A stretch of 38,709 bases of DNA from Candidatus Hadarchaeota archaeon (GTDB lineage Archaea > Hadarchaeota > Hadarchaeia > Hadarchaeales > Hadarchaeaceae), in contig CAYUMT010000003.1 of assembly GCA_964446015.1 (NCBI GenBank), positions 4,251 through 42,959 of the forward strand. Direction: 5' to 3'. The number at the start of each line of letters is the position of its first letter. Position 1 is the stretch's first letter. Both the position numbers and the translations under genes were made by a program. A model generated the notes under the pieces. It saw only the letters and a program-made list of their open reading frames with translations. It made no database searches and had not been told where the DNA came from. Below, piece after piece: positions 1,731 to 27,103 of this stretch.

Positions 1731-1731
1731 C

Positions 1732-2447: not shown

Positions 2448-2717
2448 TCATTTCGCCGCTGCTTCAAAAAGTCCGCAGTGGCAGTGTCCCATTGTCTTTA
2501 TCTCATCCTTGTGGTAGACGCAGGGACATATTATGCGCGAGTCCTGGGCCTTATCACCCGTAACCGTGCGGCAGGGACAATATCTGTAGCCGTACTTCTT
2601 CTCATTTTCGAGAAGTCCCTTGATTATCTCATCTAGGAATACATTGTCCGGCTGCAGCTGGAACCCCTGCTTTTCAGCATACTTTTTTAACATTTCTAGA
2701 AGACGCTCAGCGTTCAT
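2448..2717 (-). CDS. ferredoxin:thioredoxin reductase catalytic-subunit-like protein (FTR/FDR family)
   Basis: 89 aa with the CPC...CPC...CHC cysteine triad (YCPCRTV...IICPCVYH...GHCHCGLF) characteristic of the FTR catalytic domain. Divergent from the AOR gene. Confidence 0.8.
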   Translation of the reverse strand: MNAERLLEMLKKYAEKQGFQLQPDNVFLDEIIKGLLENEKKYGYRYCPCRTVTGDKAQDSRIICPCVYHKDEIKTMGHCHCGLFEAAAK

Positions 2718-2797
2718 ATTTCAAAACCTCATCTATTTAATCGCCACTTATTTAGCTAATCATTTTAATAAGAGTTTTGCTGTAAAAAGTGAGTTGA

Positions 2798-4624
2798 ATG
2801 TTTGGATACGCGAGAAAGATTCTCTACGTGGATTTATCGAAGAAAAGCATTGAAGAACGAGAGACGCCCGAGAAGCTGACCAACGGCTTTATTGGCGGTC
2901 GTGGCTTGGGAGCGGCGATCCTTTACCAAGAACTAGACCAAAGCGTTGATCCATTTTCCCCCGGCAACGTCCTTATATTCACTACAGGACCAGCTACTGG
3001 GACTTCCATCCCAGCTTGCCCACGCTGGTCAGCAGTGACAAAGTCCCCCTTGACTAACATTTACATGTGTTCGTCCGCTGGCGGGTTTTTCGGAGCTGAG
3101 TTGAAATTCTCCGGTTTCGATGGGTTGGTGATTCGCGGCAGGTCGGAAAAGCTCGTTTGGTTAAATATAGTCGATGGAAAGGCAGAGATACGCGATGCAG
3201 GCGAACTCTCTGGCTTGAACGCCGAGGAGACACAAATAGGGATACAAAAAGAGCTTAAGGATCGACGTGTTTGTGTAGCCTCGATTGGTCAGGCCGGAGA
3301 GAACTTAGTTAGGTTCGCCACGGTTCAGGTGGACATGCACTCATTGGGAAGAGGAGGCTCGTTTGGAAGATGCGGCGCCGGCGCAGTCATGGGCTCGAAG
3401 AAACTGAAAGCTATCTCGGTCAGAGGACACGGTAGATTCGAAGTTGCAGATGAAGATGGCCTAGCGGCTCTTAAGAGGGAACTCATCATCGAGATGAAAA
3501 ACAACGAAAGGGTTCAGAGGTTCACCCGCTGGGGAAGTAGTCAATTTGTCGAACCGGTGAACGAAGCCCGTATGTTGCCGACTAGGAATTTCCAGCACGG
3601 GTTTTTTGAAGGTGCTGAAAGTGTTAACGCCGAGACGTTCCGGAGGCAGCTGGTAAGGCGGAACACTGCATGTCATACTTGTACAATCGCATCAGGTAAA
3701 CTCAGCGTTGTAAACAATGGCAAATATGCGGGAACAATTGTGGATGGCCCCGAGTATGAGACCATATGGAGCTTTGGTCCCCAATGTGGTGTAGACCAGC
3801 TTGACGCGATAGCCGCTGCAAACATGTTGTGCGATCAATACGGGTTGGATACCATTTCAACTGGCAATGTCATCGGTTTTGCAATGGAATGCTATGGGCG
3901 CGGTCTTCTCCAAGAAATCAATGGCTTAAATTTGAATTTTGGTAACAATGATGCCATGATTGAGCTGATTTATAAGATCGCTCGGCGGGAGGGGCTCGGT
4001 GGGCTTCTAGCGGATGGCGTCATGGCTGCAGCCGACAAAATTGGCCATGGTGCAGAAAAGTTCGCAATGCATGTGAAGGGCCTGGAGTTGCCTGCCTATG
4101 ATCCTCGCGGGGCTTGGGGAATGGCGCTGGCATTTGCGACCGCATGTAGGGGCGGATGTCACCTAAAGGCATGGACCCTCACGGCTGAAGTTTTCGCTCC
4201 AAAGTTCGACCGATTTTCTACAGACGGCAAAGCTAAATTGGTATTTGAACTCCAAAACGCTCGCGCAGTTGTGGATTCATTAGGGGTTTGCGTATTTGGA
4301 ACTCGGGCCATAGGTGTTAACGAGATGATAAATATACTGGCTGTCACTACAGGAAGGAATCTGAGCGAAAAGAAGTTGTTGGGCATCGGCGAACGGATTT
4401 ACAATCTAGAACGTGTGCTGGCAGTTCGTGATGGAATATCCAGGGAGGACGATACTCTACCTCCCAGAGTATTTGAGGAAAAATTGCATGGTATTGAAGG
4501 GCCTAGATTGGGCAAGGAACAATTTGAACTAATGTTGAGTGAGTATTATAGCATGCGTGGTTGGGGTCAAGATGGAAATCCAAAAGGCAAAAATTTAGAT
4601 GAGTTGATTATCAAAAAAGCTTGA
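2798..4624 (+). CDS. aor: aldehyde:ferredoxin oxidoreductase family tungstopterin enzyme
   Basis: 608 aa. N-terminus G(Y)xxKILxVDLS, GGRGL, and conserved AOR-family blocks (CxxCxxxC-like region ACHTCTIA, DTIS, ELPAYDPRG, CRGGCHL). Confidence 0.93.
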   Translation: MFGYARKILYVDLSKKSIEERETPEKLTNGFIGGRGLGAAILYQELDQSVDPFSPGNVLIFTTGPATGTSIPACPRWSAVTKSPLTNIYMCSSAGGFFGAELKFSGFDGLVIRGRSEKLVWLNIVDGKAEIRDAGELSGLNAEETQIGIQKELKDRRVCVASIGQAGENLVRFATVQVDMHSLGRGGSFGRCGAGAVMGSKKLKAISVRGHGRFEVADEDGLAALKRELIIEMKNNERVQRFTRWGSSQFVEPVNEARMLPTRNFQHGFFEGAESVNAETFRRQLVRRNTACHTCTIASGKLSVVNNGKYAGTIVDGPEYETIWSFGPQCGVDQLDAIAAANMLCDQYGLDTISTGNVIGFAMECYGRGLLQEINGLNLNFGNNDAMIELIYKIARREGLGGLLADGVMAAADKIGHGAEKFAMHVKGLELPAYDPRGAWGMALAFATACRGGCHLKAWTLTAEVFAPKFDRFSTDGKAKLVFELQNARAVVDSLGVCVFGTRAIGVNEMINILAVTTGRNLSEKKLLGIGERIYNLERVLAVRDGISREDDTLPPRVFEEKLHGIEGPRLGKEQFELMLSEYYSMRGWGQDGNPKGKNLDELIIKKA

Positions 4625-4647
4625 TTAAATCTATGCACATGAAATGA

Positions 4648-4654
4648 TTTTTTT
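4648..4654 (+). terminator. oligo-T tract (T7) downstream of aor, candidate archaeal terminator
   Basis: TTTTTTT lies 24 nt after the aor stop. Archaeal RNA polymerase terminates at oligo-T runs. Confidence 0.3.
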
Positions 4655-4754
4655 AGCCTCGCCTGTTTACTTTGAACTTTAGGTCTTGAGTTGATAATAT
4701 AGATTAACGAGAGGTTTTATAGCTGGCAGTCTAAATTTATTTGGAGGTGTTGAG

Positions 4755-4988
4755 ATGGTAAATGCCTACAGTTTAATTTCGGCAGAGCCAGGAAAGACAT
4801 CAGAAGTCTACAAGAAGGTAAAGCTTATCGATGGTGTTAAAAAGGCTGAGGCCGTCGCGGGTCCTTACGACATAGTTGCTCGCATAGAGGTCGACTCATT
4901 AGAAAAACTGACTAAAGCGGTCTTTGGCGACATCCGAGGCATCCCTGGAGTCACTAACACTACGACGCTAATTGTGGTCGAGTTGTGA
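4755..4988 (+). CDS. stand-alone Lrp/AsnC ligand-binding (RAM) domain protein
   Basis: 77 aa, AYxLI...PGxxxxVxxxVxxIxGVxxAxxVxGxYDIVARIE...L...V...I..IPGVxxTxT. This is the typical AsnC_trans_reg fold with no HTH. Confidence 0.8.
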   Translation: MVNAYSLISAEPGKTSEVYKKVKLIDGVKKAEAVAGPYDIVARIEVDSLEKLTKAVFGDIRGIPGVTNTTTLIVVEL

Positions 4989-5551
4989 TGGCTCTTCAGA
5001 TCATCGGCATCGTTGGGCTGCCAGGGTCAGGCAAAACGGAGATTGCTAGAGCACTAGCGGATTTTAGTATACCCAGCGTGAGGATGGGCGATGTCGTATG
5101 GAACGAGATCAGAAGACGCGGCCAAAGGGTAACAGAGAAAAACGTAGCTAGGGTGTCCAACGAGTTAAGGAAAAAAGAGGGAATGAGTTCCGTTGCTAGG
5201 CGCTGCGTCCCATTGGTTAGGTCAGCTGGGGAGGGAAAGAAAGTTGTCGTGGTTGACGGGATAAGAGGGATAGCCGAGGTAAACGAGTTCCGAAGAGCAT
5301 TTGGTGGTAATTTTCATCTCATAGCAGTATGGGCTGGCGAGAAGGCCAGATCTTCGCGCATATCATCGCGGAAAAGAGCGGATGACACAATTACGCGAAT
5401 GGAATTCCATGAAAAGGACCTGAGGGAGCTTAGTTGGGGGCTTGGGGATGCGCTTGCACTTGCAGATGTCATGTTTATTAATGAGGGGACTCTCGACTCG
5501 CTTCATGAGAAGGTTTTAGATTTTTATAAGGTGGTCGGTGGGGAGCCTTGA
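4988..5551 (+). CDS. UPF0200-family P-loop nucleotide kinase-like protein (dephospho-CoA-kinase-like fold)
   Basis: IIGIVGLPGSGKTE Walker A, followed by MGDVVWNEIRRRG and VVVDGIRGIAEVNEFR blocks as in archaeal UPF0200. The ATG at 4988 overlaps the upstream TGA (TGATG). Confidence 0.7.
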   Translation: MALQIIGIVGLPGSGKTEIARALADFSIPSVRMGDVVWNEIRRRGQRVTEKNVARVSNELRKKEGMSSVARRCVPLVRSAGEGKKVVVVDGIRGIAEVNEFRRAFGGNFHLIAVWAGEKARSSRISSRKRADDTITRMEFHEKDLRELSWGLGDALALADVMFINEGTLDSLHEKVLDFYKVVGGEP

Positions 5552-5976
5552 GGTTGCGCGTTGAGGTAGAAGTTAAGCCTACTGAGGTTCAGGAAAAGAT
5601 CGAGGCAGCCGTGCGAAAGATATTTCCAACACTATCCCTTGAAAGATCTGGGAACTTTCTCGCTGGCGAATCAACAGATATGGAGTCTCTATCTCGATTT
5701 CATCAGCTCCTGAGGCAACAGATGATATTAGACACGGCTCGCCGTGCCATGCGTTCGAACAGGAGGGATAACTCTACACAGCTATCTTTGAACAAACAGG
5801 TCGCATTCGTCGGTAAGGTTAACTTCACAAACGGAGAATCGCCGCTTGGGCCGATTACAGTGATTTTGGAGGCACCAGATATCGAACGACTTATAGATTA
5901 TCTGGCCCCCCGTACTCGGGATGGTAAGCCTATACAAGATGTCGGATATTCAGTGGAGCGCGACTCGTCTGGATAG
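5548..5976 (+). CDS. UPF0201-family (COG1931) putative RNA-binding protein
   Basis: 142 aa, N-terminus RVEVEVKPTEVQEKIEAAVRKIFP typical of UPF0201. It has a 4-nt overlap with the UPF0200 gene, its usual partner. The start is a non-ATG (TTG) codon. Confidence 0.6.
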   Translation: MRLRVEVEVKPTEVQEKIEAAVRKIFPTLSLERSGNFLAGESTDMESLSRFHQLLRQQMILDTARRAMRSNRRDNSTQLSLNKQVAFVGKVNFTNGESPLGPITVILEAPDIERLIDYLAPRTRDGKPIQDVGYSVERDSSG

Positions 5977-6142
5977 CTTGGTTACAGCAAAGATCACGAT
6001 GCTATCAAAATAATATTTTCATTAATTTGATGTTTTATTGTGAATTTGAGCTTTCCCGGTCAGATGCTGCGTAAAGCAAGTTTAATGGGAAAAAGCTTAT
6101 TTTAAACGGCCTGTATTTTAATTCTATTAATAGGTGGGTAAG

Positions 6143-6985
6143 ATGTACAAAATAGTTGCTAAGAGCAAGCTAGCACCGGACATCATTTCTTTAGAAATTG
6201 ATGCCCCCCTGATTGCAAAGAGAGCCAAACCGGGACAATTCGTAATTTTGATGACTCATGAATGCGGGGAACGAATTCCACTTACAATAGCGGACTATGA
6301 TAGGAATAATGGATCATTGCGAATTGTTTTTGAGGTCTTGGGTAAGACAACTGCAAGGCTTTCCCGGCTAAAAAAGGGTGATGAACTATTTAGTTTGGTT
6401 GGCCCATTGGGTAACCCGTCGGATATCGGTAATTTTGGAACCGTTATAGTGGTAGGAGGAGGAACGGGCGTCGCCGCACTCTACCCGATCGCAAGGGCCC
6501 TCAAGGAAGCCGGTAATAGAGTCATAGGAATCATAGGTGCAAGGACGAAGGAGCTACTCATAATGGAGGATAAGATGAGAAAAGTCTGCGACGAGCTATT
6601 AATTACAACTAATGATGGAAGCTACGGCAGAAAGGGATTCGTGACTAACCCTTTGACTGAGGTGCTTCAGATGGAAAAGGGCGTTAAGAGGGTATGGGCT
6701 GTCGGCCCTGCCCCTATGATGAAGGCTGTCTCAGATGTTACCAGGCCGTACAATTTGGAAACGATCGTCAGTTTGAACGCCATAATGTTAGATGGAACCG
6801 GAATGTGCGGCTGCTGCAGGGTCACCATAGGGGATAAGATGAAGTTCGTATGTTTGGACGGTCCGGAGTTTAGTGGACATCTGGTCGACTGGCATGAGTT
6901 CATGAACAGATTGGCGCGGTATAAGCAACAGGAAAAAGTTTGCTTCGATATTTACAAAAAAGAATGCGGTGAATTAGATGGCTGA
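6143..6985 (+). CDS. nfnA: NfnA/SudB-type FAD and [2Fe-2S] ferredoxin-NADP oxidoreductase small subunit
   Basis: MYKIVAK..LAPDI..LEIDAP.IAK.AKPGQFVIL, GERIPLTIAD, GGGTGVA, and C-terminal CGCCRV...CxDGPxF. Start moved to the ATG at 6143 (track GTG at 6134). Confidence 0.85.
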   Translation: MYKIVAKSKLAPDIISLEIDAPLIAKRAKPGQFVILMTHECGERIPLTIADYDRNNGSLRIVFEVLGKTTARLSRLKKGDELFSLVGPLGNPSDIGNFGTVIVVGGGTGVAALYPIARALKEAGNRVIGIIGARTKELLIMEDKMRKVCDELLITTNDGSYGRKGFVTNPLTEVLQMEKGVKRVWAVGPAPMMKAVSDVTRPYNLETIVSLNAIMLDGTGMCGCCRVTIGDKMKFVCLDGPEFSGHLVDWHEFMNRLARYKQQEKVCFDIYKKECGELDG

Positions 6986-8417
6986 GATGATACCAGTTCC
7001 AGAGCGCATGAAGCGATCTCCACGCAGGATGTCCGAGCAGGATCCTAAAGATAGAATCAAAAACTTTGACGAGGTCCCGCTTGGTTACACAAAGGAAGAT
7101 GCAATATATGAGGCACAAAGGTGCTTACAGTGTAAGGATTCTCCCTGCGTGAGTGGTTGTCCCGCCGAGGTTCACATACCACAATTCATCCGGAAGATAG
7201 TCGACGAGGATTTCGCTGGTTCGTACCTAGAGATCTTAATGACAAACAACCTGCCTGCGGTTTGTGGCAGGGTTTGCCCCCAGGAGGATCAGTGTCAGAA
7301 AGCATGCGTTCTCAACAAAAAGGGAAAGCCGATAGTCATAGGTAAGCTGGAACGTTTCGGGGCTGACTGGGCAAGGAAAAATGACGTTAAGGAGAGATTG
7401 GAGACAAAAATGAAGGGCAAAAGGGTCGCGGTTGTGGGGTCTGGACCTGCCGGGATTACCTGCGCCTCAGACCTAGCTAAGATGGGCTATGATGTGACGA
7501 TTTTCGAGGCACTTCATAAGCTAGGCGGAGTTTTGACATACGGCATTCCTGAATTCAGATTGCCAAAGGAAATTGTGACTTGGGAAGTGGAAAAAATTAA
7601 GGATTTGGGGGTAAAGTTACAGCACGATTTTGTCGTAGGCCTCACAAAAAGCATCGATGAACTGGCTGAGGAATTTGACGCAATTTTTATTGCCAATGGG
7701 GCAGGTGCGCCCAAGTTCATGCAAATCCCGGGTGAAAACTTAAACGACGTATACTCCGCAAACGAATTCCTGACGAGATCAAACCTGATGAGGTCCTTCA
7801 AATTTCCAGAATTTGACACCCCTATTAAGATAGGGAACAAGGTCGCCGTTATAGGCGCAGGAAATGTGGCAATGGATGCCGCTAGAACCGCATTGAGGTT
7901 GGGGGCGAAGGATGTGCATATAGTCTATAGGAGAACACGGGAGGAGGCGCCTGCGCGTGGTGAAGAAATTGCTCATGCGGAGGAGGAAGGGATAGTCCTA
8001 GATTTTCTCACCCTCCCCGTAAGGGTTCTGGGTGATGAGGGAGGCAATGTTACGGGGATGGAATGTATCAAGATGAAACTCGGAGAACCAGATGAATCAG
8101 GGAGGCGGAGGCCAATCCCAATCGAGGGGTCTAACTTCATCATGCAGGTGGATATGGTAATCGACGCAATTGGGACATCATCAAATCCTATCGTCGCTAG
8201 GAGCGCTACTGGCGTAAATACAAACAAATGGGGATATTTTGTCGTTGACGAAGAAACATGCGCGACCTCTAGGAAGGGAATATTCGCGGGCGGAGATATT
8301 ATCCGTGGTTCAGCAACGGTTATTTCGGCAATAGGTGATGGAAAAAGAGCCGCGAGGGCTATTGATAGATACCTTTCCGAGGGCGGGAGTTTAAAAAAAG
8401 TGCAGCCGTTTAAATAA
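6978..8417 (+). CDS. nfnB: NfnB/SudA-type (GltD-like) NADPH-dependent oxidoreductase large subunit
   Basis: 479 aa. Contains EAQRCLQCK.SPC..GCP, VCGRVCPQE..C, VAVVGSGPAGITCA, VIGAGNVAMDAAR and GGD. It has an 8-nt overlap with nfnA. Confidence 0.9.
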   Translation: MAEMIPVPERMKRSPRRMSEQDPKDRIKNFDEVPLGYTKEDAIYEAQRCLQCKDSPCVSGCPAEVHIPQFIRKIVDEDFAGSYLEILMTNNLPAVCGRVCPQEDQCQKACVLNKKGKPIVIGKLERFGADWARKNDVKERLETKMKGKRVAVVGSGPAGITCASDLAKMGYDVTIFEALHKLGGVLTYGIPEFRLPKEIVTWEVEKIKDLGVKLQHDFVVGLTKSIDELAEEFDAIFIANGAGAPKFMQIPGENLNDVYSANEFLTRSNLMRSFKFPEFDTPIKIGNKVAVIGAGNVAMDAARTALRLGAKDVHIVYRRTREEAPARGEEIAHAEEEGIVLDFLTLPVRVLGDEGGNVTGMECIKMKLGEPDESGRRRPIPIEGSNFIMQVDMVIDAIGTSSNPIVARSATGVNTNKWGYFVVDEETCATSRKGIFAGGDIIRGSATVISAIGDGKRAARAIDRYLSEGGSLKKVQPFK

Positions 8418-16371: not shown

Positions 16372-16683
16372 AATTCACTTTAGAAGTTTGAATATAAAGC
16401 ACTTTTAAATATTTTCTGGTTTAATATTCTCAAAAATCCTTTTGATATGCTAGTGTTTGTGAATATGCTAAAAATTGGTGATTATACCAAAAGTAGATAG
16501 AATAAAGGGAAAGCTAAAAAACATTTAAATTTATGTCATGTAGGTGCGGATATATGAGAACTCAAATTTCTAGAAGGGGCGATGGTGGATAGTGACATTA
16601 CTAATTTGTCACTTGCTTCCATAGATATCTAAGGATAAGATTTTCCTTTAAGAAGTACCCGCACACAAAGGCTTGATGGGCAT

Positions 16684-17058
16684 TTGTCCAAGGGGTTGGC
16701 AGCGTCCGATGTTATAAGGTCGATGATGCGTGCTGGATTTTCGCGCGACGAAATCTATGACGTTCTCACCAGCGCGGGACTGTTTGGGGAACAAATCCAA
16801 CTTATGATTGATCGTGTGTCGGCTGAGTTCCACGAGGCCAAGATAGAATCGCGGCCCTCAAAGCTGGCTAGCGAGGTCGGATTGATATTTCGAGAGATAA
16901 TTGAAAATTTTCAGCATGAGGCACTTGCGCGGATGGACTTACTATCTCATCGACTTGGGCTTATAGAGGTGGACTTGGGGCGACTAATGAAACATGTCAA
17001 TGGGCCGCGATCGAAAATATCTCCTAAATTTTGTCGGGAAGCAAAACGCTCAAGATGA
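16684..17058 (+). CDS. hypothetical small helical protein
   Basis: 124-aa ORF with a TTG start (internal ATGs at codons 14-15). The composition looks coding, but I recognise no family. It is convergent with the pilin-like operon. Confidence 0.4.
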   Translation: MSKGLAASDVIRSMMRAGFSRDEIYDVLTSAGLFGEQIQLMIDRVSAEFHEAKIESRPSKLASEVGLIFREIIENFQHEALARMDLLSHRLGLIEVDLGRLMKHVNGPRSKISPKFCREAKRSR

Positions 17059-17118: not shown

Positions 17119-19116
17119 TCAGCCCGATGAGATTGTAAAGGGTCGAAGGCTAATTACCACCACCGTTGTCTTGAACATCCTCTCTGGAATCTCCCAGCGG
17201 TATGCAAGCGGTTTGTGTAAGTAATAGGGCCCATGGGCAAGCGGCAGCGTCGGGTTGTCGAAGTCGAAGATTTCCTCAACCGGCTGAACCTCCAATTCAA
17301 CGGCCACATCCCACTGTCCCCACCAGAGCGTGACCCCCGTGGGCCAAAGCGGGATGGGTGTGGCCATAGGTGAGCCGAGCAAACCTGCCAGGTCCCCGCG
17401 CTTGTATTTCACGTCCTTTACTCTGAATTCGTGGTAGACGGATATTCCAGGTAATTTCTTAATTGGCGGGGGCGGCAGCAATTCGTAAAATTCTTCGCGG
17501 CCGATCTTGAACGTGGGCGGTCCTGATTTTATCCTTAGTTGAAGTTCATCATCTATATCAAATTCCCTGAGTTTCTCGGTTGATGGCTCCAGCCGTTGCG
17601 ATAACTTTAGCATTCCCTCAATGTTTGTTTTTGCTCCATCAAGCACGAACCTCAGGAGGCCAATTGTTCCATCCGATTCGTCATCGGCGCAGACAGGTAA
17701 CCTATCCTCTACGAGCCGAGGTGGTTTATCGGCGTACGTTTCAACCATGACCCATCGTTTTGGGTTCGGTCTTGCTAGCAGCTGCTTGATTGAACTCTGG
17801 ATTTCCTTTAGGTGGTCTTCCAAATGACTTTCGAATCCCCCCGAGGCGAGCCTCATCAATATGCTGGCTATAGCTCCATTGATATCTAGTAATTTGTCGA
17901 GCGTCCCTCGCGTTCCCCAAAGCACCTGTTCTTCAAAAGATGGATACCCTTCGTCGATTGACCTAGATTTCAGGCTTTGGTGAATGACGGACATTAACGA
18001 GTTGTTGGATGTGGAACCGGCCATTGACTCGATCAAATGGTTGAATTGTTCCCTAACCTCGGAGACCTTATCAGTCGCACTTAGGACGCTCATTTTAGCC
18101 TTTTCGAGTGAAGTTTGAATTTTATTAACTAGGGCGCTCTTGTTTTCGGAACTATTTAATATCACGGCCGTTTCTCTCGCCACCCTAACTGACCGTTCAG
18201 CATCGATTAAAGAATTCGAAGCATCATCAAGCACCCTCACTGCACCCCCAAGATAGCCATTCAAAACCTCAATATCCGCAGCTTGAATGGGGTTAACCAG
18301 CACTCTACTTTCTTCCAAACCCAGAATCGGATTTTTCCCTGTTTTCATTCCCTGAGCTTTTTCGATTAACAACTGCGCGGCCGCCCAATAATCGGACGAT
18401 CCGAATGTATTTAGTTCGTGGAGATTCCAAGCGGCCTCGAATAAGGCCTCGGTATGGGTGTGGCTGAGCTCCACGTTCTTAGTCGCCCATGCTTCGGACC
18501 AAGATTTTACGTATTCCATCATCTGCCACAGGTTAGAAATCTCATGCTGCCTTTCCAAGAAATCGTTCATGCGCTGTTGAAGTAAAAAATATCTGGAGTC
18601 GACAAACACTTCAACATTTTCGAACATTAGCGCGAGCGATGCGGTCCCATCCCAAGATTTGAGCTCTATATAGGAGTCGTTAGGGAGACCAGCGCGTGTT
18701 AGCACGTAGCCGTCTCCGTTATCCTCGATGATTAAGTTTGGCCAATGCGATTCTTCAGAGATATCTAGGTTGATGCGCGCATCATGTTTAGGGTATGCAC
18801 GCTCTAACTCGGTCAGGCTCTCTCTAAAATACTTGGTGGCTAGGGACTCGATGGCATATTTCCTACCATTGTCATCGTAATCGCTTGCCCTTTTTCCGAC
18901 CTCCCAAAGCGCCCTGTAAACGGAGTATCTCACAGTCGACCTTAGTTCGCCATGAACTTCTGCGGTATCCGCTAGCAGGGACGAGGTAGTTGCATCCCCC
19001 GTGGTTGAAAGCGAGCGCTGGTGCCTTAACCAAGCCGTCTGGGCAACCATCCCAAGAACCAACATGACTATGAGGGCCCCAGCAGCGCTGAATGGCATGA
19101 ATCCGCTTTTCTTCAT
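17119..19116 (-). CDS. large (665 aa) protein with pilin-like N-terminal helix; last gene of the pilin-like operon
   Basis: N-terminus MKKSGFMPFSAAGALIVMLVLGMV (basic residues, then G followed by a hydrophobic helix). A long helical middle part follows, then a Pro/Trp-rich C-terminal region (LLPPPPIKKLPG, PLWPTGVTLWWGQWD). ATGA overlap with the upstream gene. Confidence 0.75.
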   Translation of the reverse strand: MKKSGFMPFSAAGALIVMLVLGMVAQTAWLRHQRSLSTTGDATTSSLLADTAEVHGELRSTVRYSVYRALWEVGKRASDYDDNGRKYAIESLATKYFRESLTELERAYPKHDARINLDISEESHWPNLIIEDNGDGYVLTRAGLPNDSYIELKSWDGTASLALMFENVEVFVDSRYFLLQQRMNDFLERQHEISNLWQMMEYVKSWSEAWATKNVELSHTHTEALFEAAWNLHELNTFGSSDYWAAAQLLIEKAQGMKTGKNPILGLEESRVLVNPIQAADIEVLNGYLGGAVRVLDDASNSLIDAERSVRVARETAVILNSSENKSALVNKIQTSLEKAKMSVLSATDKVSEVREQFNHLIESMAGSTSNNSLMSVIHQSLKSRSIDEGYPSFEEQVLWGTRGTLDKLLDINGAIASILMRLASGGFESHLEDHLKEIQSSIKQLLARPNPKRWVMVETYADKPPRLVEDRLPVCADDESDGTIGLLRFVLDGAKTNIEGMLKLSQRLEPSTEKLREFDIDDELQLRIKSGPPTFKIGREEFYELLPPPPIKKLPGISVYHEFRVKDVKYKRGDLAGLLGSPMATPIPLWPTGVTLWWGQWDVAVELEVQPVEEIFDFDNPTLPLAHGPYYLHKPLAYRWEIPERMFKTTVVVISLRPFTISSG

Positions 19117-19787
19117 GCGTACCAGAGCTCCAGCGCGACTTCAGCAATCGGGTCTATTTTGAAGTAATCAGGCAGTTCAGTTCCGAGCGCATCCTCAAGG
19201 CGTTTTGTTAGTTCATCGCCGATTTCAGGTAAAAATAGCATCAATGTTTCAGAGCAAAGTTGTTCTTTTGCCCCAACTAAATTTTCAACCTCGAACTCGA
19301 AATGAACGCGGGCAAATCCGAGTTTAATTGGCTCAGCCCTGACGCGAAGGCGATAGCAGAACCTTCCTCCGATCAATCGGTCGATGCACGACTTTAGGAG
19401 GCCCCTGAGTTTATCATCCATCATCCGGTTTGGACGCAAAAGCGTGAGATCCGTTCCACCCACCTCCAAGTACATATTCAAAAGTGTTTCCTCGACCAAC
19501 AGGTTGGCGAGGGTCTTGTTGTGAAGTCTCCGTTTCGCTGATTCTTCCACAATGGGGATGATCAAATTGTTGTCAAGGACGCTCAATTTGTACTCAAAGC
19601 CCCCAAACTGGTCGGCAGTACAGTGCTGGATGGATAGTAACGTGCTTTGCGCGAAGGTGGAGGCATAGCGTTTGCTCTCAATTTTAGGATCTATGGGGTT
19701 CACGATAAACAGAAAGGTTATCGCGATTGAAACTAACATGGCGAAGACTAACAGGTCGACAACGGTGCCCGTTCCCTTATTATTCAC
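19113..19787 (-). CDS. pilin-like protein 5 (N-terminal hydrophobic helix)
   Basis: I place the start at the GTG at 19787, one nt after the upstream TAA (19791-19789), giving VNNKGTGTVVDLLVFAMLVSIAITFLFIV. The track's 28-codon extension to 19871 would overlap the upstream gene by 83 nt. Confidence 0.7.
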   Translation of the reverse strand: MNNKGTGTVVDLLVFAMLVSIAITFLFIVNPIDPKIESKRYASTFAQSTLLSIQHCTADQFGGFEYKLSVLDNNLIIPIVEESAKRRLHNKTLANLLVEETLLNMYLEVGGTDLTLLRPNRMMDDKLRGLLKSCIDRLIGGRFCYRLRVRAEPIKLGFARVHFEFEVENLVGAKEQLCSETLMLFLPEIGDELTKRLEDALGTELPDYFKIDPIAEVALELWYA

Positions 19788-19788
19788 T

Positions 19789-20214
19789 TTACCCTCTCCA
19801 GATTCGCACTGATAACTCGCAGAGCATTGCCGATCCCCTTCCGCAAGCCACAGCTGCCGGGATGCTCGCACTGGCGCTTTGAGGCGCGTCCATAAGGGGA
19901 CCGTGTGAAAAGATTATCCTGCCATCAATGGATTTAACTTCAACACGAATTTTCACCCCTTGCACCGCTCTCGATTTTGAGTAATTTTCTAGCCTCTCGT
20001 GCGAGAGCCCTAGAAGGCCGGACTCTCCTCCCTGCGTCACTAGCACTCTGTCCCTGAGCTGCCCCGCCACATCGAGGGCCAGGTCAAAATCATCGCAAGC
20101 GTTTAGCCGTTTCGAATAGTTGTCATAGGAATTGAACAGTGCCGCCATAAACGCGGCTAATATCAGGACCACGATCATGGTCGAGAAAAGGTCTTCTGCT
20201 ACATGAAGCGCCAT
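19789..20214 (-). CDS. pilin-like protein 4 (N-terminal hydrophobic helix)
   Basis: MALHVAEDLFSTMIVVLILAAFMAALF, then an amphipathic helix and a beta-rich C-terminus. It directly abuts the upstream gene with a 0-nt spacer. Confidence 0.7.
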   Translation of the reverse strand: MALHVAEDLFSTMIVVLILAAFMAALFNSYDNYSKRLNACDDFDLALDVAGQLRDRVLVTQGGESGLLGLSHERLENYSKSRAVQGVKIRVEVKSIDGRIIFSHGPLMDAPQSASASIPAAVACGRGSAMLCELSVRIWRG

Positions 20215-20640
20215 CTAAGATAACTCCACTTCAATCCCATTTGATTTTTTTGCCAATATCTCTCGCGGGTTTTTAACAGATAGAAAGAAGTCGCCGCGAT
20301 TAACGGTTGTCGAGAGCTCTAGTAGGCGTTCAGTTTTAATATCGGACGAAACTTGGATTTGTATTAACTGTAGACCGTCAGCTAACTTACCATTTATCAG
20401 AACTTCAAATTGTCCCGAGGTTGCAGACAGCTCACGTTTCAGTTCAGCGTCCCCCAGAAACTTATCTATTTCATCAATTGTCTTGGCTATTTCGCCGGCG
20501 ATTTGCTCAAGTTCCTGCCTTTCCGCAAATCGCCTGTAGCCTGCATTTATCGAGGTAATTGCCCCAATGATGGCAATGACTGCGATAGCGAGTCCGATTT
20601 TACAGAGCAGGAAGTCAGGAGAAACTCCATAATTATCCAA
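20215..20640 (-). CDS. pilin-like protein 3 (N-terminal hydrophobic helix)
   Basis: MDNYGVSPDFLLCKIGLAIAVIAIIGAITS, then a helix and beta strands. It has an 8-nt overlap with the upstream gene. Confidence 0.7.
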   Translation of the reverse strand: MDNYGVSPDFLLCKIGLAIAVIAIIGAITSINAGYRRFAERQELEQIAGEIAKTIDEIDKFLGDAELKRELSATSGQFEVLINGKLADGLQLIQIQVSSDIKTERLLELSTTVNRGDFFLSVKNPREILAKKSNGIEVELS

Positions 20641-21046
20641 TATGGGCCCCCCTTATCCTCAAGATGTAATTTCCGTCAACACGTTCAAGTTCCACAAGGT
20701 AGCTCCCGCTCCGGATTTCTCCCATATCCGAGAGCGTTTGCAGCGGAAGGATTTCGTCTCGTACTATAGTGTCCTCCTGCATCAATCGCAGGTTTTTGCC
20801 ATCTACGAGGATCGAGCAGCTTCCCATCTCCAGTTCAACAACTTCGGTTGCGCCCGCACCTCCAGCGCTTATGAATCGAGAGGTTTCGATGAGCAAGTTG
20901 AAACTATCGATGGCTCGCTGACGTTCGCTAATCCTCTGAGCTCTTTCGAGGGTAGCGACTCCTATTGATAACGTACATACACCGAGCAAAGTTCCAAGGA
21001 GCAGCACCACTGGCAGTGACTCCACGCCACGGATATCGCGCAGCAT
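20633..21046 (-). CDS. pilin-like protein 2 (class-III-signal-like N-terminus)
   Basis: MLRDIRG|VESLPVVLLLGTLLGVCTLSIGV: RG is followed by a hydrophobic helix, then a helix plus beta-rich domain. Confidence 0.7.
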   Translation of the reverse strand: MLRDIRGVESLPVVLLLGTLLGVCTLSIGVATLERAQRISERQRAIDSFNLLIETSRFISAGGAGATEVVELEMGSCSILVDGKNLRLMQEDTIVRDEILPLQTLSDMGEIRSGSYLVELERVDGNYILRIRGAHIG

Positions 21047-21050
21047 TAAA

Positions 21051-21428
21051 TCATCCCACAGCAGCTTGACCTTGCCATGGGATGTATCCGTTTCGGGTGA
21101 CCTGAACTGTCACGACGACAGCTTTAGCGCCGTTCATGGGTATTGTAAATGTATATTGGTTGGAGTTTTTCCCCAGAGTATGTGCATCCGTGCCCCCTAG
21201 ATACTTCACAACAACAGTCGTACCGCCGAGGGCATCTCCACTCGCGGCATCGTAGACTTTTACGGTCAGGCGGTTCTTTGAGGTTGAGAACTGGATCTCC
21301 ATGTCCTTCAGGACGCTACGCTCCGCAGTCCCCACAAACTGCATGAGGATGCCCATGGTCATCGTGCCTATGACGAGCGCCATCACCAGCTTGATAGGGA
21401 CGCCCATCAGCTGTCCCTTATCGTCCAT
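21051..21428 (-). CDS. pilin-like protein 1 (class III signal peptide-like) with carboxypeptidase-regulatory-like beta-sandwich
   Basis: MDDKG|QLMGVPIKLVMALVIGTMTMGILMQFV fits the archaeal prepilin pattern [KRDE][GA][ALIFQMVED][ILMVTAS]. The C-terminal part (VKVYDAASGDALGGTTVVV...TVQVTRNGYIPW) looks like a CarboxypepD_reg-type domain. Confidence 0.75.
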   Translation of the reverse strand: MDDKGQLMGVPIKLVMALVIGTMTMGILMQFVGTAERSVLKDMEIQFSTSKNRLTVKVYDAASGDALGGTTVVVKYLGGTDAHTLGKNSNQYTFTIPMNGAKAVVVTVQVTRNGYIPWQGQAAVG

Positions 21429-21460
21429 TTTTCCCGCCGAGGCTTTGGGCGGGAGTTAGT

Positions 21461-21466
21461 TATAAA
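21461..21466 (-). promoter_or_regulatory. TATA-box candidate for the pilin-like operon
   Basis: The minus strand reads CTTTATAAC, 33-38 nt upstream of the ATG at 21428. Confidence 0.35.
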
Positions 21467-21525
21467 GGAGTAAAATTAACTTGTATGAACAACGTTTGTC
21501 AGGGCTCCAGATATCGTTATGATGA

Positions 21526-21618: not shown

Positions 21619-21682
21619 TCCACCGTGGCCTTGCAGGGGAGTTCTTTATAGGCGGCCAAACTTTGGTTTAGACGTGAGCGAG

Positions 21683-21946
21683 ATGTCAGGCGCCTACTAC
21701 GTTTACATCCTGCGGAGCCTGAAGGACGGAAACTTCTACATAGGATGTACCTCCGACCTGAAGCGCAGGCTGGCCCGGCACAACGGCGGATGGGTTCGTT
21801 CCACAAAGGCAAGGCGGCCTTTCGTGCTGGTTTACTGGGAGGAACTCCAGACGCGCAGCGAGGCGATGAGACGTGAGCGAAAGCTGAAATCGTTTAAGAA
21901 AAAGGATAAGCTAAAGCTGGTCGAGGCCTTTCGTCGAACTAAATAG
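21683..21946 (+). CDS. GIY-YIG nuclease family protein (UPF0213-like, stand-alone)
   Basis: YYVYILRSLKDGNFYIGCTSDLKRRLARHN.G....TKARRPF.LVYWEE...RSEAMRRERKLK matches the GIY-YIG signature. ATG at 21683 is preferred to the track GTG at 21674. TTTATA lies at 21645-21650. Confidence 0.85.
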   Translation: MSGAYYVYILRSLKDGNFYIGCTSDLKRRLARHNGGWVRSTKARRPFVLVYWEELQTRSEAMRRERKLKSFKKKDKLKLVEAFRRTK

Positions 21947-21983: not shown

Positions 21984-22478
21984 ATGGGAGACAGGGCCTT
22001 AAAGTGGTGTCTTAGGCTGTTGGGCATCGCCTTGTTGATAGGTCCCATACTAGTCGCGCTCAGCGCTAACAACTGGGACATCAAGGCTGCAGTTCTTCCC
22101 ACCGAGGAGGAAATGAATCAAGTGATGGATTCTGTCACCGGAGTTTTCGGTGGTGGTTTCTCCCAAGACACTTTCGTTATTGGGAACCCGTCGGTAAGTG
22201 GTAATAAGGTGAGTTTGCTGGTCAGCTTTAAATCGCCGTTCAACGTGCCGATAAAGATAATCGATGTCACGATCACAGTGGCGGACAAGGGCGTACAGGT
22301 TGGCCAGCTAAGTATGCAGGATAGCGTGGTGGAGGTCCCGGTAAATGGCACTGCGAATTTAACGCTTGTCGGCACGTTAACCGGATCTTATCCAACCGAT
22401 CCGCAGTTTAGCATCCAGAGCGGAACATTCGAGGTGTACGGCGTGAGCGTACATCTTCAGATGGGTGGTCAGGCATGA
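21984..22478 (+). CDS. membrane-anchored beta-sandwich protein (possibly LEA_2/Ig-like fold)
   Basis: N-terminal TM helix LRLLGIALLIGPILVALSA, then alternating beta-strand pattern (VSLLVSFKSPFNVPIKIIDVTITV...VEVPVNGTANLTLVGTL). The family assignment is tentative. Confidence 0.6.
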   Translation: MGDRALKWCLRLLGIALLIGPILVALSANNWDIKAAVLPTEEEMNQVMDSVTGVFGGGFSQDTFVIGNPSVSGNKVSLLVSFKSPFNVPIKIIDVTITVADKGVQVGQLSMQDSVVEVPVNGTANLTLVGTLTGSYPTDPQFSIQSGTFEVYGVSVHLQMGGQA

Positions 22479-23098
22479 AAGAAGGTTCTTCATCCATGAA
22501 CTGGCTTGGCGTGGTTGCAGGTGCGTTGATGGTGGTTCTGCCTTTCCTAGGGCCATGGTGGATTGGTCAGGCCGGTGCTGGTGCTTTTGAGGTAGCGTTT
22601 TCACCTTTTGATGTATCTATAAATCTTTTGGGTAGCTCAATTCACTCCAGCATAGTAGATCTCTTCCTTCTTGCAGCGAGGATCGCGATGATATTAGGGG
22701 GAATCTTCCTAATCCTAGGCTCGCTGTTCGCGAAGCGCTGGTGGTCTAAGCGTCTGGTCAGGTTCGGCATAATGAAGCCCTTCTGGGCGGTTGTGGGTCT
22801 TTTTATCCTGCTTGTTTTGGGTGCATTTATTGTCAATTATGTACTGCCAATGTTGCTGCCGAACCTTGTAGCCGGCGCAGGAGACATTGGCGGCGTGACG
22901 ATAGATCTTAACCTACCCTATGTCGTTGGGACTTCAAACTCAACCATCCAGATAGGGACGATGGCGACCATTACGGCCCCGATTAGCTTTTCGCTAACTT
23001 GGGTCTTTTGGTTCGCCGTGGTCGTTGCTGCTCTCGCAATCGCAGCGCGAATTTACCACCGCAGGTTAACGAAAGAGCAAAAAAGCATAGTACCTTAA
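22475..23098 (+). CDS. polytopic membrane protein, unknown family
   Basis: 207 aa with about 5 hydrophobic helices. ATGA overlap with the upstream gene. Confidence 0.6.
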   Translation: MKEGSSSMNWLGVVAGALMVVLPFLGPWWIGQAGAGAFEVAFSPFDVSINLLGSSIHSSIVDLFLLAARIAMILGGIFLILGSLFAKRWWSKRLVRFGIMKPFWAVVGLFILLVLGAFIVNYVLPMLLPNLVAGAGDIGGVTIDLNLPYVVGTSNSTIQIGTMATITAPISFSLTWVFWFAVVVAALAIAARIYHRRLTKEQKSIVP

Positions 23099-23952: not shown

Positions 23953-25197
23953 TCATTCGTAGCGAAGTGCCACTATTGGGTCTAAATTTGCAGCTTTTCT
24001 TGCTGGTAACAGTCCCGCCATCACGCCCACGAGGAAAGACAGGGCTATTACTCCCACTATTAGTTCGGGTATTATCACGATACTCGCATTGAGCGATTGA
24101 AATCCACCTCCTTGGGGAAACTGAGAACCGCTGAAGGCTAAACTGGACAAAAAGAGTAACCCTTGGCCTAACCCTAACCCTAAGGCGACTCCGATGGCAC
24201 CTCCTATGAGGCTTATGATCCCAGACTCAAGTACAAACAAAAGCAGTATGTCACGGTTTGTCGATCCTATGGCCTTCATGACACCTATCTCCCTAGTCCT
24301 CTCTGAGACGGTCACGTACATTATGTTGGTGATCCCGATCGTCCCGACAATCAGGGAGATTCCCGCTATGCCTCCCAGAAGGATGGTCAGCAAGCCGGTG
24401 ATCTGTCCCACTATGCTGGTGATGTATTCCGGTGTTATCACCGTGAAGTCCTCATTGCCCTTTGTCACTTTGTGGGAGCGGCGCAGAGCTTCCGAAATCC
24501 TGTCGGCCACTTCGCTTACGTTTGCGTCGGGCTTTACCCCCACGGTTATTGAATTCACCCTGTCCGCGGACAGTTGAAACAGATCCCTCATCTCCTTCTT
24601 TGGAATATATATTGTAGAATCCGTAGTTACGAAAAGGCCGCCGCCCTTATTTAAAATACCAACAACCTGGAATTCCGCGCCGTTTATGATGAGCTTTTTT
24701 CTTATGCCGACATCCTTCTCGTACGTGTCGTAAGCGACAGAATTGCCTATGATTGCGGCAAGGCGGTCAGAGTCCTTTAGATATCTCCCTATCTCTATGC
24801 CCAGTGTGTCTAATTTTTGAAAATCGCTGGGAGAGACACCTGCGATGGTCAAACCTTGCGCCTCGCCCCCATAATCTACGAGTACGGATGTCTGGATCTG
24901 ACCGTAAGCTGCCTGCACCTCGGACACGCTCAAAACCGTGTCGACATCCTTTTCGGTTAACACGCCTGTCGTCGCGGAGCCGCCAAAAGTTCCGCCTATT
25001 CTTGCTGTAGTGACAGTGATTCTATTTCCCTGAAGCTTTTCAAGTTGGCCGCTAATTGAGGCACTAATTCCTTGAGTCGCTGAGACCATGCCGACAATGG
25101 CCGCTATCCCTATTATAACGCCCAGCGTGGTCAGAGCGCTCCTCAACCTCCTCTGGGTTAAGTTTCTGAATATTAGGACAAGAGACCCCTTTAGCAT
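23953..25197 (-). CDS. ABC transporter permease, MacB/FtsX type
   Basis: 414 aa. N-terminal TM helix, a large MacB-type periplasmic domain, and a C-terminal FtsX region with 3 TM helices (ERTREIGVMKAIG). Confidence 0.9.
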   Translation of the reverse strand: MLKGSLVLIFRNLTQRRLRSALTTLGVIIGIAAIVGMVSATQGISASISGQLEKLQGNRITVTTARIGGTFGGSATTGVLTEKDVDTVLSVSEVQAAYGQIQTSVLVDYGGEAQGLTIAGVSPSDFQKLDTLGIEIGRYLKDSDRLAAIIGNSVAYDTYEKDVGIRKKLIINGAEFQVVGILNKGGGLFVTTDSTIYIPKKEMRDLFQLSADRVNSITVGVKPDANVSEVADRISEALRRSHKVTKGNEDFTVITPEYITSIVGQITGLLTILLGGIAGISLIVGTIGITNIMYVTVSERTREIGVMKAIGSTNRDILLLFVLESGIISLIGGAIGVALGLGLGQGLLFLSSLAFSGSQFPQGGGFQSLNASIVIIPELIVGVIALSFLVGVMAGLLPARKAANLDPIVALRYE

Positions 25198-25200
25198 ACA

Positions 25201-26406
25201 TTATTTTCTCCTCTTTCGCAAGAAATAGTAAACAATCAGAGCGGCAACCACGATGATGAGTGCTATTTGCCAAATAGGAATTCCAACCGTATTTCCAATT
25301 TCGCCGATGGAAAGTACGCTTAAGTCAACGGTTTTAGTCTCTGTGAATTCCTTACCGAATGGATCTTGATACACCAGCTCAAAACTTACGGGATAAATAC
25401 CCTTTGCAGTTTTTTCACTAACTTTGAAGGACATTTTTTCGGTGTCATAGTCATCCGACTTTAAATCGCCTATATAAATATTGTTCGGGATAATCTCCTC
25501 TAAAAATGGAGAATCCGGAATCCTTAGTTGCAGAAATTGGGCCTCAATGGTCCCAGCATTAGCTATCTTTATCTCCATAGTGCCCTTCATGCCGCTTGCC
25601 ACTTTATCTTGCGAGTCTAGCGTGACTATCAAGTTAAGTTTTCCATAAACCTTTATCCCGGCTGATTCTCTACCTGTAAAAATCTCATTCTTTGTTTCAT
25701 CCTTATAATTAAACAATATCGGGATGGAGTAAGAACCCGCGCTCAAATCTTGGCTTATGGTGAGGGAAAAAGAAACCTTGGTGGAACTGCCCACCGGCAA
25801 ATCTCCGATGTACTTCTCGCTCAAGTCTGCGGTAAAAATCCCACCAGTTTGATCTAGCGAGACTATCAAATCCTTTGCGAGTCCATCGCCGTAATTTTTT
25901 GCATCGAAGGAGATCGTCACATTGCTGCCTGGTTCAATTGTGGATGGGCTGTAGTTTATGCCTGCAACTTTCAAAAGCGGGGTTGCCCTTATTATCACAG
26001 GAACCCATAACGTAAGGTTCTTTTCATCGGCGGTAACGCTACCGACGTGGAAAGTCGAGCTTACCTGTATGTAAGATGTGCCGGATTTTGCGTTATCACT
26101 AGCTTTAATCTTTATTGAGGTATATTGGGCAGTCGTAGGGTTGATGCTGTTTAAGCTGAAGTGAGCCGGTGAAACGGTGAGGCTTGGGTCCGCATCAAAA
26201 TAAAAATGCACGTCATAGATCCTAGTGGTAAGAGGGTTTTCAATGGTCAGTAATAGTGCCGTTTCGCCACTTGGTCTTAAGAAATTATCAAGCAGTCGCC
26301 AATTTACATTCAATGAACCATCATCCGCAGAAATCGGACCCGCGCTGGCTAGAACTACCGATAGGAGTAGTATAGAGGCCAGTGCCAAGATTAATACATT
26401 TTTCAC
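25201..26406 (-). CDS. secreted, C-terminally anchored cell-surface protein with repeated CARDB/COG1361-like beta-sandwich domains
   Basis: Signal peptide MKNVLILALASILLLSVVLASA, three similar about-110-aa beta-rich repeats (..PGSNVTISFDAKNYG.., ..GTMEIKIANAG..), and a C-terminal TM helix followed by RKRRK. Confidence 0.75.
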   Translation of the reverse strand: MKNVLILALASILLLSVVLASAGPISADDGSLNVNWRLLDNFLRPSGETALLLTIENPLTTRIYDVHFYFDADPSLTVSPAHFSLNSINPTTAQYTSIKIKASDNAKSGTSYIQVSSTFHVGSVTADEKNLTLWVPVIIRATPLLKVAGINYSPSTIEPGSNVTISFDAKNYGDGLAKDLIVSLDQTGGIFTADLSEKYIGDLPVGSSTKVSFSLTISQDLSAGSYSIPILFNYKDETKNEIFTGRESAGIKVYGKLNLIVTLDSQDKVASGMKGTMEIKIANAGTIEAQFLQLRIPDSPFLEEIIPNNIYIGDLKSDDYDTEKMSFKVSEKTAKGIYPVSFELVYQDPFGKEFTETKTVDLSVLSIGEIGNTVGIPIWQIALIIVVAALIVYYFLRKRRK

Positions 26407-26407
26407 G

Positions 26408-27103
26408 TTATCTCCTCTCCTCCTTTACTATCTGACCGTCTTTTAAATAAACTGACCTATTTGTTTTTCCTGCTATATATGTATCATGGGTAACGATTAC
26501 TAAGGTCACCCCCTTTTCCTCGTTCAATCTCAGAAGCAGATCAATGATATCCCTCCCTGAGGCGGAATCTAAATTGCCAGTCGGCTCATCTGCAAGGATG
26601 ATTTTTGGCTCGTTTGCGATGGACCTAGCTATGGCGACCCGTTGTCTTTCTCCCCCGCTTAATTCAGATGGTTTATGCTTCATCCTTTCAGTCAAGTTTA
26701 CCAGCTTCAGAAGCTCCTTCCCTCTGTCTCTTCTCTCACGCTCCCCTCTGCCCGCAAACATCATCGGCAATTCGACGTTTTCCAGTGCAGTTAAAGTTGG
26801 GATCAAATAAAAGAACTGAAAGACGAATCCAACTTTATTCCTCCTTATTTCGGCCAATTTTGAGTTATTGAGCTTTGAGGTATCTACTCCATCTATAAAA
26901 ATTTTGCCGTTTGTAGGCTTGTCTAAACAACCTATCAAATGAAGGAGGGTGGACTTCCCCGAACCGGAGGGCCCTATTATTGAGAGGTTTTCCGACGGCG
27001 CTATATCCAAACTTATTTTATTTAACGCCCTAAACTCCACTTTGCCCATGTCGTAGATTTTGCTGACACCGCGTACGCTGACGACTTCGCTCATCTTGTT
27101 CAC
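26408..27103 (-). CDS. ABC transporter ATP-binding protein (MacB/LolD-like)
   Basis: GPSGSGKST Walker A, LSGGERQRVAIAR signature, ILADEPTGNLD Walker B. Confidence 0.93.
   Translation of the reverse strand: MNKMSEVVSVRGVSKIYDMGKVEFRALNKISLDIAPSENLSIIGPSGSGKSTLLHLIGCLDKPTNGKIFIDGVDTSKLNNSKLAEIRRNKVGFVFQFFYLIPTLTALENVELPMMFAGRGERERRDRGKELLKLVNLTERMKHKPSELSGGERQRVAIARSIANEPKIILADEPTGNLDSASGRDIIDLLLRLNEEKGVTLVIVTHDTYIAGKTNRSVYLKDGQIVKEERR

Follow-up and report, generated by a model that had tools for sequence, protein, structure and literature searches.

Type IV filament systems are found in most archaeal phyla except Asgard (bioRxiv 10.64898/2026.04.22.720090). There is precedent in archaea for split loci and for pilin sets that are served in trans by an ATPase/TadC pair; in Haloferax, PilB3/C3 serves PilA pilins that are encoded elsewhere (PMC4858521; bioRxiv 10.64898/2026.04.22.720090). 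Clade 1 and clade 2 loci combine five or more minor pilin-like proteins with large adhesin-like proteins (PMC4858521; bioRxiv 10.64898/2026.04.22.720090). Here we describe a six-gene operon (g1 to g6) of Candidatus Hadarchaeota archaeon, found in a 38,709-nucleotide (nt) stretch of contig CAYUMT010000003.1 that we call, at its full length, the window. The Hadarchaeota, archaea of the subsurface with genomes of ~1 Mb, are widespread and uncultured. We propose, with moderate confidence, that g1-g6 supply this phylum with the subunits of a structure like a type IV filament, either a pilus or a short pseudopilus. The cluster represents a variant, specific to its lineage, of an archaeal set of type IV filament subunits, with a function that we infer. 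An operon of archaeal type IV filament subunits with its machinery possibly in trans is already known; what is new is an undescribed set of six families, three of them without relatives outside the phylum, that is always apart from the machinery and fixed across the phylum, together with a private promoter element common to the operon and a cytoplasmic partner, c3.

Euryarchaeal clade 2 or 'System 2' type IV pilus (T4P) loci (the Haloferax volcanii PilB4 type), and the related halobacterial subclades 4C and 4F, have their own multi-pilin set, as the Hadarchaeota locus does (PMC4858521; bioRxiv 10.64898/2026.04.22.720090). In both, several class III-type or pilin-like proteins, some without a canonical motif, are encoded in one operon with a large protein, adhesin-like in clade 2, and subclade 4F has a cytoplasmic coiled-coil component where the Hadarchaeota locus has c3 (PMC4858521; bioRxiv 10.64898/2026.04.22.720090). 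In contrast to these loci, the Hadarchaeota locus has no ATPase or TadC in any genome, and for g1, g2 and g6 no relatives are detectable beyond Hadarchaeota; neither the signature minor pilin arCOG02911 nor PilA-family major pilins were detected.

The Epd pilus of Methanococcus maripaludis (clade 1/System 1) is also similar, with about five minor pilin-like proteins and large proteins inferred to lie at the tip, and some Epd pilins are encoded away from the core locus (PMC4858521; bioRxiv 10.64898/2026.04.22.720090). Epd loci differ in that they carry an ATPase, two platform genes and a dedicated peptidase, and in that their major pilin, of ~70 amino acids (aa), lacks a globular domain, whereas the Hadarchaeota proteins show no DUF2341 or Class_IIIsignal matches. 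In subsystem 4E of the Thermoproteales (Pyrobaculum), the locus is split, with pilin genes lying away from the membrane machinery as they do here (PMC4858521; bioRxiv 10.64898/2026.04.22.720090). However, this subsystem belongs to another phylum, uses PilA-family pilins (arCOG03739/03740) and has no six-gene set.

The operon consists of six back-to-back minus-strand genes (21428-17119); in each product, a short polar leader precedes a hydrophobic helix of ~20 residues. In the N-termini below, a slash marks the putative cleavage site.

g1, 21428-21051, minus strand: 125 aa, starting M-D-D-K-G/QLMGVPIKLV; hydrophobic helix plus a CarboxypepD_reg-like beta-sandwich
g2, 21046-20633, minus strand: 137 aa, ...I-R-G/VESLPVVLLLG; pilin-like minor subunit
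g3, 20640-20215, minus strand: 141 aa from a TTG start, M-D-N-Y-G/VSPDFLLCKIG; pilin-like minor subunit
g4, 20214-19789, minus strand: 141 aa, M-A-L-H-V-A/EDLFS; hydrophobic N-terminus without a charged residue at -2
g5, 19787-19113, minus strand: 224 aa from GTG, M-N-N-K-G/TGTVVDLLVF; distant DUF7284 member
g6, 19116-17119, minus strand: 665 aa, M-K-K-S-G/FMPFSAAG; large subunit

These coordinates agree with an original prediction, made from the sequence of the window alone, of six open reading frames (ORFs) separated by +4, -8, 0, +1 and -4 nt with the g5 start placed at GTG 19787. The longest ORF for g5 begins at 19871. The later start is well founded: GTG 19787 lies 1 nt past the g4 stop with GGAGAGGG upstream, and in an alignment of the window protein and its orthologues (n = 24) the N-termini coincide at M-x-E-[RQK]-G, corresponding to this GTG. 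A T-rich stretch follows g6, and all proteins of the cluster carry the annotation hypothetical. A hydrophobic N-terminal helix had been claimed for every product, and all six indeed have a hydrophobic 19-mer near the N-terminus (Kyte-Doolittle mean 2.1-2.8). Such segments occur in 13 of 46 non-overlapping window ORFs and in 7 of the 40 outside the operon; because six of the 13 are adjacent, their presence in the operon is not due to chance. Taken together, g1-g6 form one conserved transcription unit, and its six products have class III-like N-termini.

In the class III (prepilin) pattern, a short leader ends in [KR]-[GA] and a hydrophobic helix of ~20 residues comes directly after it. We applied this pattern to 121 sequences comprising the window proteins and their orthologues in the six families. 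The position just before the hydrophobic helix (-1) is Gly in 116 sequences and Ala in 5, and the hydrophobic stretch starts directly after it, 4-7 residues from Met1. Family by family, -1 is Gly or Ala in 17/17 g1 and 21/21 g2 sequences and Gly in 18/18 g3 and 24/24 g5 sequences; in g4 (n = 19) it is Gly in 17 and Ala in two. The preceding residue (-2) is Lys or Arg in most members of g1 (15/17), g2 (16/21), g3 (11/18, in each case Arg), g5 (15/24) and g6 (17/22), and Val, Ile or Thr in all 19 g4 sequences. The orthologue alignments give the following family N-termini.

g1 family: M-[DEN]-x-[KR]-G/QLMGVPIKLV
g2 family: ...[KR]-G/VESLP
g3 family: M-[DN]-x-[RH]-G/LLADF
g4 family: M-x-L-S-V-G/EDLFS
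g5 family: M-x-E-[RQK]-G/xGYIADMLVF
g6 family: M-K-E-R-G/FMPFSAAG, with RG/FMPF conserved

Judged by these alignments, five of the six families follow the class III pattern, g4 being the exception, and the window copies of g3 (Y at -2), g4 (V-A) and g6 (S) are simply weak examples of their own families. The cleavage sites proposed in the original prediction coincide with the Gly (rarely Ala) conserved in every family. Its description of most of these N-termini as fitting only loosely holds for the window copies of g3, g4 and g6, which do deviate, but not at the level of the families, since the orthologues show [KR]-G/hydrophobic in five of them. In g2-g5, acidic residues are found between +1 and +6 of the putative mature protein; g6, the largest subunit, has none near its putative mature N-terminus. 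Residue +1 of g1 is Gln, which is typical of EppA substrates.

An AlphaFold2 model of g1, built from a 30-sequence alignment (predicted local distance difference test score, pLDDT, 83.6), has a 27-residue helix (residues 12-38) followed by a seven-strand beta-sandwich. When the model was searched against the PDB with Foldseek, the best of 1656 matches was 9eq7, the archaellum filament subunit of Halobacterium salinarum. This match, the sole one below E = 0.001, spans the whole length of g1, helix and sandwich together. CarboxypepD_reg matches the sandwich in 18 of 30 g1 orthologues (best E 1.9e-6), in line with the resemblance first noted in this protein. The helix-then-beta architecture that had been ascribed to all five small proteins is supported for g1 by its model; the model of g6 shows helices, then a beta-sheet, then novel domains.

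The same six genes, in the same order and with the same housekeeping surroundings, are present in all 35 related loci examined, gene order being judged in loci long enough to tell. These comprise 27 genome loci, from a scan of one genome per GTDB species, and 8 further contigs that include the most divergent clade. The operon is also carried by the 1.03-Mb contig CAZETV010000001.1 (GCA_964514965.1). The 27 genome loci are labelled Hadarchaeota, Hadesarchaea or 'Hodarchaeaceae', except for one 'Methanobacteriota archaeon' record. Relatives of g6 come exclusively from metagenome-assembled genomes (MAGs) of Hadarchaeota (Hadesarchaea), with 35-51% identity, and the most divergent members that could be placed on contigs (565-589 aa, one of 757 aa) lie with the same six genes in order. 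On the g6 side, a small convergent gene, a Na+/H+ exchanger, an MJ1316-like gene, a metallo-beta-lactamase, a radical S-adenosylmethionine gene and phosphoribosyl pyrophosphate synthase are kept as neighbours; this conserved neighbourhood points to vertical inheritance at a fixed chromosomal site.

Identity across the phylum is 75-82% for g1 (187 matches) and ~30-55% for g2-g6. Because g1 opens the operon, is the shortest of the six and is conserved far better than the rest, we regard it as the candidate principal or repeating subunit. Alternatively, the six proteins could make up only a priming or tip complex of minor pilins plus a large tip protein, with a stand-alone gene elsewhere for the major pilin, as Methanococci and Thermococci have for their small major pilins. 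The translational coupling of the genes suggests near-equal stoichiometry, and several euryarchaeal systems as a rule keep the major pilin gene on its own, apart from the minor-pilin loci (PMC4858521). The six families are also distinct, without detectable paralogy (none was found when the g2, g3 and g4 profiles were compared by hhalign), as in bacterial minor-pilin sets. We nonetheless consider a priming or tip complex rather unlikely: the much higher identity of g1 and its position first behind the promoter are a better fit to a repeating core subunit, and an ORF scan of the window found no class III-like ORF beyond the operon.

Two cases depart from a single intact operon. In the MAG CSMAG_2768, the operon occurs on two contigs, L009 (JAUXAS010000071.1) and L019 (JAUXAS010000029.1), reflecting either a true duplication or two strains mixed in the bin. 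In L024 (JASEGJ010000001.1, 10001-12026), g6 is broken into two ORFs of 422 and 268 aa, which could reflect a frameshift or pseudogene or an assembly error; a 419-aa protein, P0042, corresponds to the first half of this split g6.

The operon shares its promoter type with the small convergent gene at its 3' side, c3.

g1 promoter and leader element, 21429-21475, minus strand: TTTTA-CTCC-TTTATAA-N10-CCCAAAGCCTCGGCGGG-AAAA-ATG
c3 promoter and leader element, 16641-16683, plus strand: TTTTCC-TTTAAGAA-N11-CAAAGGCTTGATGGG-CAT-TTG, of the same type as that of g1
c3, 16684-17058, plus strand: 124 aa, convergent with g6; UBA-like three-helix domain plus coiled coil

In general form, the element upstream of g1 reads TTTTCC-TTTATAAA, ~12 nt, CCCAAAGCCTCGGCGGG, then 4-5 nt to the ATG. 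Seventeen loci keep it upstream of g1, and in the divergent clade it stands before both g1 and c3; its core has a single exact match in the window. We searched both strands of ~400 kb for a TATA-like hexamer at most 30 nt upstream of C[AT]AA-N3-9-G[GA][CA]GGG-N1-8-start. There were 28 such TATA-linked matches: 12 before g1, 15 before c3 and 1 elsewhere. Because the motif is almost exclusive to these two genes, it argues for co-regulation of c3 and a functional link with the operon, and c3 is probably a co-regulated seventh component. Among loci reaching past the 3' end of g6, c3 adjoins g6 at all but two (L023 and L028). Just upstream of the ATG, the g1 leader in the window also holds a perfect inverted repeat, CCCGCC-N9-GGCGGG (21433-21453, minus strand). 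As a hairpin it is not clearly conserved, because the left arm is CCACC in most orthologues; the element may instead be a protein-binding site.

The c3 protein has no transmembrane segment and is cytoplasmic; it shows weak matches to UBA_2, DUF1421 and FlaC_arch (the last in 3 of 16 orthologues, best E 0.004). The FlaC_arch matches, together with the archaellin that is the best structural match of g1, could speak for a cluster that is part of an archaellum (motility) locus. We disfavour this as highly improbable. The FlaC matches of c3 sit in its generic coiled coil, g1 has ~125 aa whereas the archaellin chains of 9eq7 have 177-181 residues, and Arch_flagellin goes unmatched. Moreover, no arlC-J-type gene lies near any locus, and the arl accessory genes (F, G, H, I, J) were absent from the neighbourhoods examined.

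The window also lacks genes for assembling a type IV filament. It contains only three Walker A motifs, in a small kinase-like AAA protein and two ABC ATPases, and none of the 36 window ORFs scanned matched Peptidase_A24, T2SSE or T2SSF; two larger ORFs (>=110 aa) outside the scan were read as a cytoplasmic enzyme-like protein and a polytopic membrane protein resembling an ABC-type permease. These scans bear out the absence from the window of PilB-, PilC- and PibD-type genes, as first reported. No secretion-ATPase-type Walker A was found in 28 loci (~360 kb), and on five further contigs the genes called near the operon include no T2SSE, T2SSF or A24 family. Since the machinery is missing beside the operon at every locus, the separation is a conserved property and not an accident of the window. 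The 207-aa membrane protein encoded at 22475-23098 was considered as a cryptic prepilin peptidase and rejected, its GAGD motif not being conserved in orthologues.

Several observations weigh against a type IV filament. Pilin_N, Class_IIIsignal and Arch_flagellin are unmatched up to E = 1 in the six window proteins and the g2-g5 orthologues, and no curated pilin or archaellin hidden Markov model (HMM) is among the 25 families listed for the g1 and g6 orthologues. The match of g1 to 9eq7 is marginal (E ~1e-3, TM score 0.47), and most of its other matches are generic FN3/Ig domains; the g6 model has no recognisable fold and no Foldseek match in the PDB at E<1e-3. No ATPase, platform or prepilin peptidase lies within ~10 kb of the operon at any locus, a distance covered in loci whose flanks are long. 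The -2 residue of g4 is never charged, and three of the window copies are off motif (g3 with Y, g4 with V and then A at -1, g6 with S). The positive-inside rule, too, predicts Lys or Arg before the helix of an uncleaved anchor, which leaves the invariant Gly as the sole specific feature. The tight translational coupling would suit a complex of fixed stoichiometry no less than a filament in which one subunit is abundant. Finally, the Hadarchaeota genus Ca. Melinoarchaeum is said to encode no PilA-type pilin (PMC11297162), a statement that is annotation-based and concerns bacterial-type e-pilins.

Many of these points would also suit a different kind of assembly, in which the six are uncleaved bitopic proteins (N-in, C-out) forming a hetero-oligomeric envelope complex, such as an anchor or spacer between membrane and S-layer, unrelated to type IV filaments. 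The lack of pilin HMM matches and of assembly genes in cis, the basic residues before the transmembrane helix, the uncharged -2 position of g4 and the conserved housekeeping neighbourhood are all consistent with such a complex. It is nevertheless improbable in our view. Six families that are otherwise unrelated share a fixed Gly (rarely Ala) at one position, 4-7 residues from Met1; the model of g1 looks like a filament subunit; and g2-g5 carry acidic residues at +1 to +6 of the putative mature end. The pilin or pseudopilin reading of the original prediction is partly supported: the conserved motifs of five families and the archaellin-like g1 model make it stronger than it was in its first form, and no pilin HMM matches.

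The large subunit g6 belongs to a family of ~70 members, as defined by an exhaustive profile search with the g6 alignment against 1.84 billion representative proteins; below these members there was only coiled-coil noise. It has no consistent Pfam family. In its AlphaFold2 model (pLDDT 73), N-terminal helices are followed by a six-strand sheet, then by long helical hairpins and, at the C-terminal end, by a beta-sandwich. Residues ~279-475, comprising helical hairpins and a beta-hairpin, gave many Foldseek matches to alpha-pore-forming toxins of the ClyA/Hbl/Nhe/AhlC/XaxB type (E 0.1-1, TM ~0.1-0.3). These low-probability matches were treated as noise; the resemblance is probably one of generic helical bundles, yet it may serve as a lead for the function of a head domain.

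The six window proteins gave nothing significant against Pfam and NCBIfam, and searches of PDB sequences with g1, g2, g5 and c3 profiles returned no relatives. Orthologues of g5 match DUF7284 (PF23955) in 15 of 18 cases (best E 1.6e-7), and precomputed PF23955 matches exist for 8 relatives; the window g5 itself scores E 0.017 and 15.5 bits, against a gathering cut-off of 27. DUF7285 (PF23956) is matched by 4 of 16 g4 orthologues (best E 2.4e-4) and not by the window g4, and DUF7283 (PF23954) is matched weakly by 3 of 16 g3 orthologues (best E 0.11). No Pfam family was found for g2. The consecutive accessions DUF7283-7285 across g3-g5 suggest that Pfam built these families from an equivalent cluster elsewhere, presumably on haloarchaeal proteins. 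A tblastn search of plasmids with a g5 orthologue, aimed at annotated haloarchaeal DUF7284 genes, returned chance matches only, and the literature yielded nothing usable on T4P or archaellum genes in Hadarchaeota or on DUF7283-7289.

The gene set and its conservation, the signal-like motifs, the modelled fold of g1 and the shared cis-element are directly supported. For a type IV filament-like structure we propose the following mechanism. Each protein would be made with a class III leader of 4-7 residues, which a prepilin-type (A24) peptidase would remove after the conserved Gly. The mature N-terminal helices would then be pulled from the membrane and bundled into a helical core, their assembly driven in trans by a pair of ATPase and platform proteins whose genes would lie elsewhere in the genome. 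In this scheme g1 would be the repeating or principal subunit, g2-g5 would be low-copy subunits that nucleate or cap assembly, and g6 would provide a functional head, for adhesion or binding, at the tip or periphery through its large novel ectodomain. On the cytoplasmic side, c3 would act as a co-regulated accessory or regulatory partner.

In layout, the operon resembles the bacterial GspG-H-I-J-K set of the type II secretion system (T2SS) and the minor pilins plus PilY1 of type IVa pili (T4aP), with the most conserved small subunit first, several distinct small ones after it and the largest last. The parallel with GspG-K extends to the acidic residues, which are present near +1 to +6 in the middle subunits and absent near the mature end of the largest. 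In contrast, there is no sequence homology to the bacterial T2SS and T4aP proteins, and the Hadarchaeota cluster has no secretin or inner-membrane platform genes, so the comparison is one of analogy only. Homology to GspG-K, N_methyl-type pilins or PilY1 was not found in the six proteins, nor were matches to PilY1 or DUF2341 domains; the sole bacterial-type match was NCBIfam GspJ at E 0.13, over the hydrophobic helix of g2 (residues 15-48). The likeness to bacterial minor-pilin/PilY1 or GspG-K sets drawn in the original prediction is therefore one of layout and not of homology. The GspG-to-GspK-like layout, the c3 partner and the private promoter could also mean that the phylum has a vertically inherited pseudopilus-type apparatus without a described archaeal counterpart, a T2SS-style piston or envelope-spanning device and not an adhesive pilus. 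We find this distinctly unlikely. Assembly of such an apparatus might even dispense with a canonical T4P ATPase, should Hadarchaeota prove to lack one.

Other genes lie near the operon. On the g1 side, the window has a divergent trio.

GIY-YIG gene, 21674-21946, plus strand: small GIY-YIG nuclease-like protein
164-aa ORF, 21984-22478, plus strand: one N-terminal transmembrane segment and a beta-rich remainder
207-aa ORF, 22475-23098, plus strand: polytopic membrane protein

The full trio is found in the window and in L008, L012 and L025; L015 and L023 also have the 207-aa membrane protein, and L018, L024 and L028 the GIY-YIG gene. Neither of the two membrane proteins belongs to a Pfam family, and the trio might share an envelope system with the operon or be merely syntenic. 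Located 2.5 kb upstream of the operon is an ABC export module (23953-27103, minus strand) that encodes an ABC ATPase, a MacB/FtsX-type permease and a secreted CARDB-domain protein of 401 aa; we found no link between it and the pilin-like genes, and it is not kept beside them at other loci. In L024, in that genome only, five tandem paralogous ORFs (186-301 aa, cluster c11) lie at ~700-7000, a few kb upstream of g1.

Because the seven-gene module, six secreted or anchored subunits and one cytoplasmic partner, keeps its genomic place across the phylum, it is likely a core part of the Hadarchaeota cell envelope, with a role in attachment, cell-cell contact or uptake. The locus illustrates that annotation-based claims of missing pilins can overlook lineage-specific pilin families. 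On the reading proposed here, g1, g2 and g6 would add new families to the repertoire of archaeal type IV filaments, and the operon would provide a first context for the uncharacterised Pfam families DUF7283-7285. The promoter element common to the operon and c3 offers a handle for finding their regulator.

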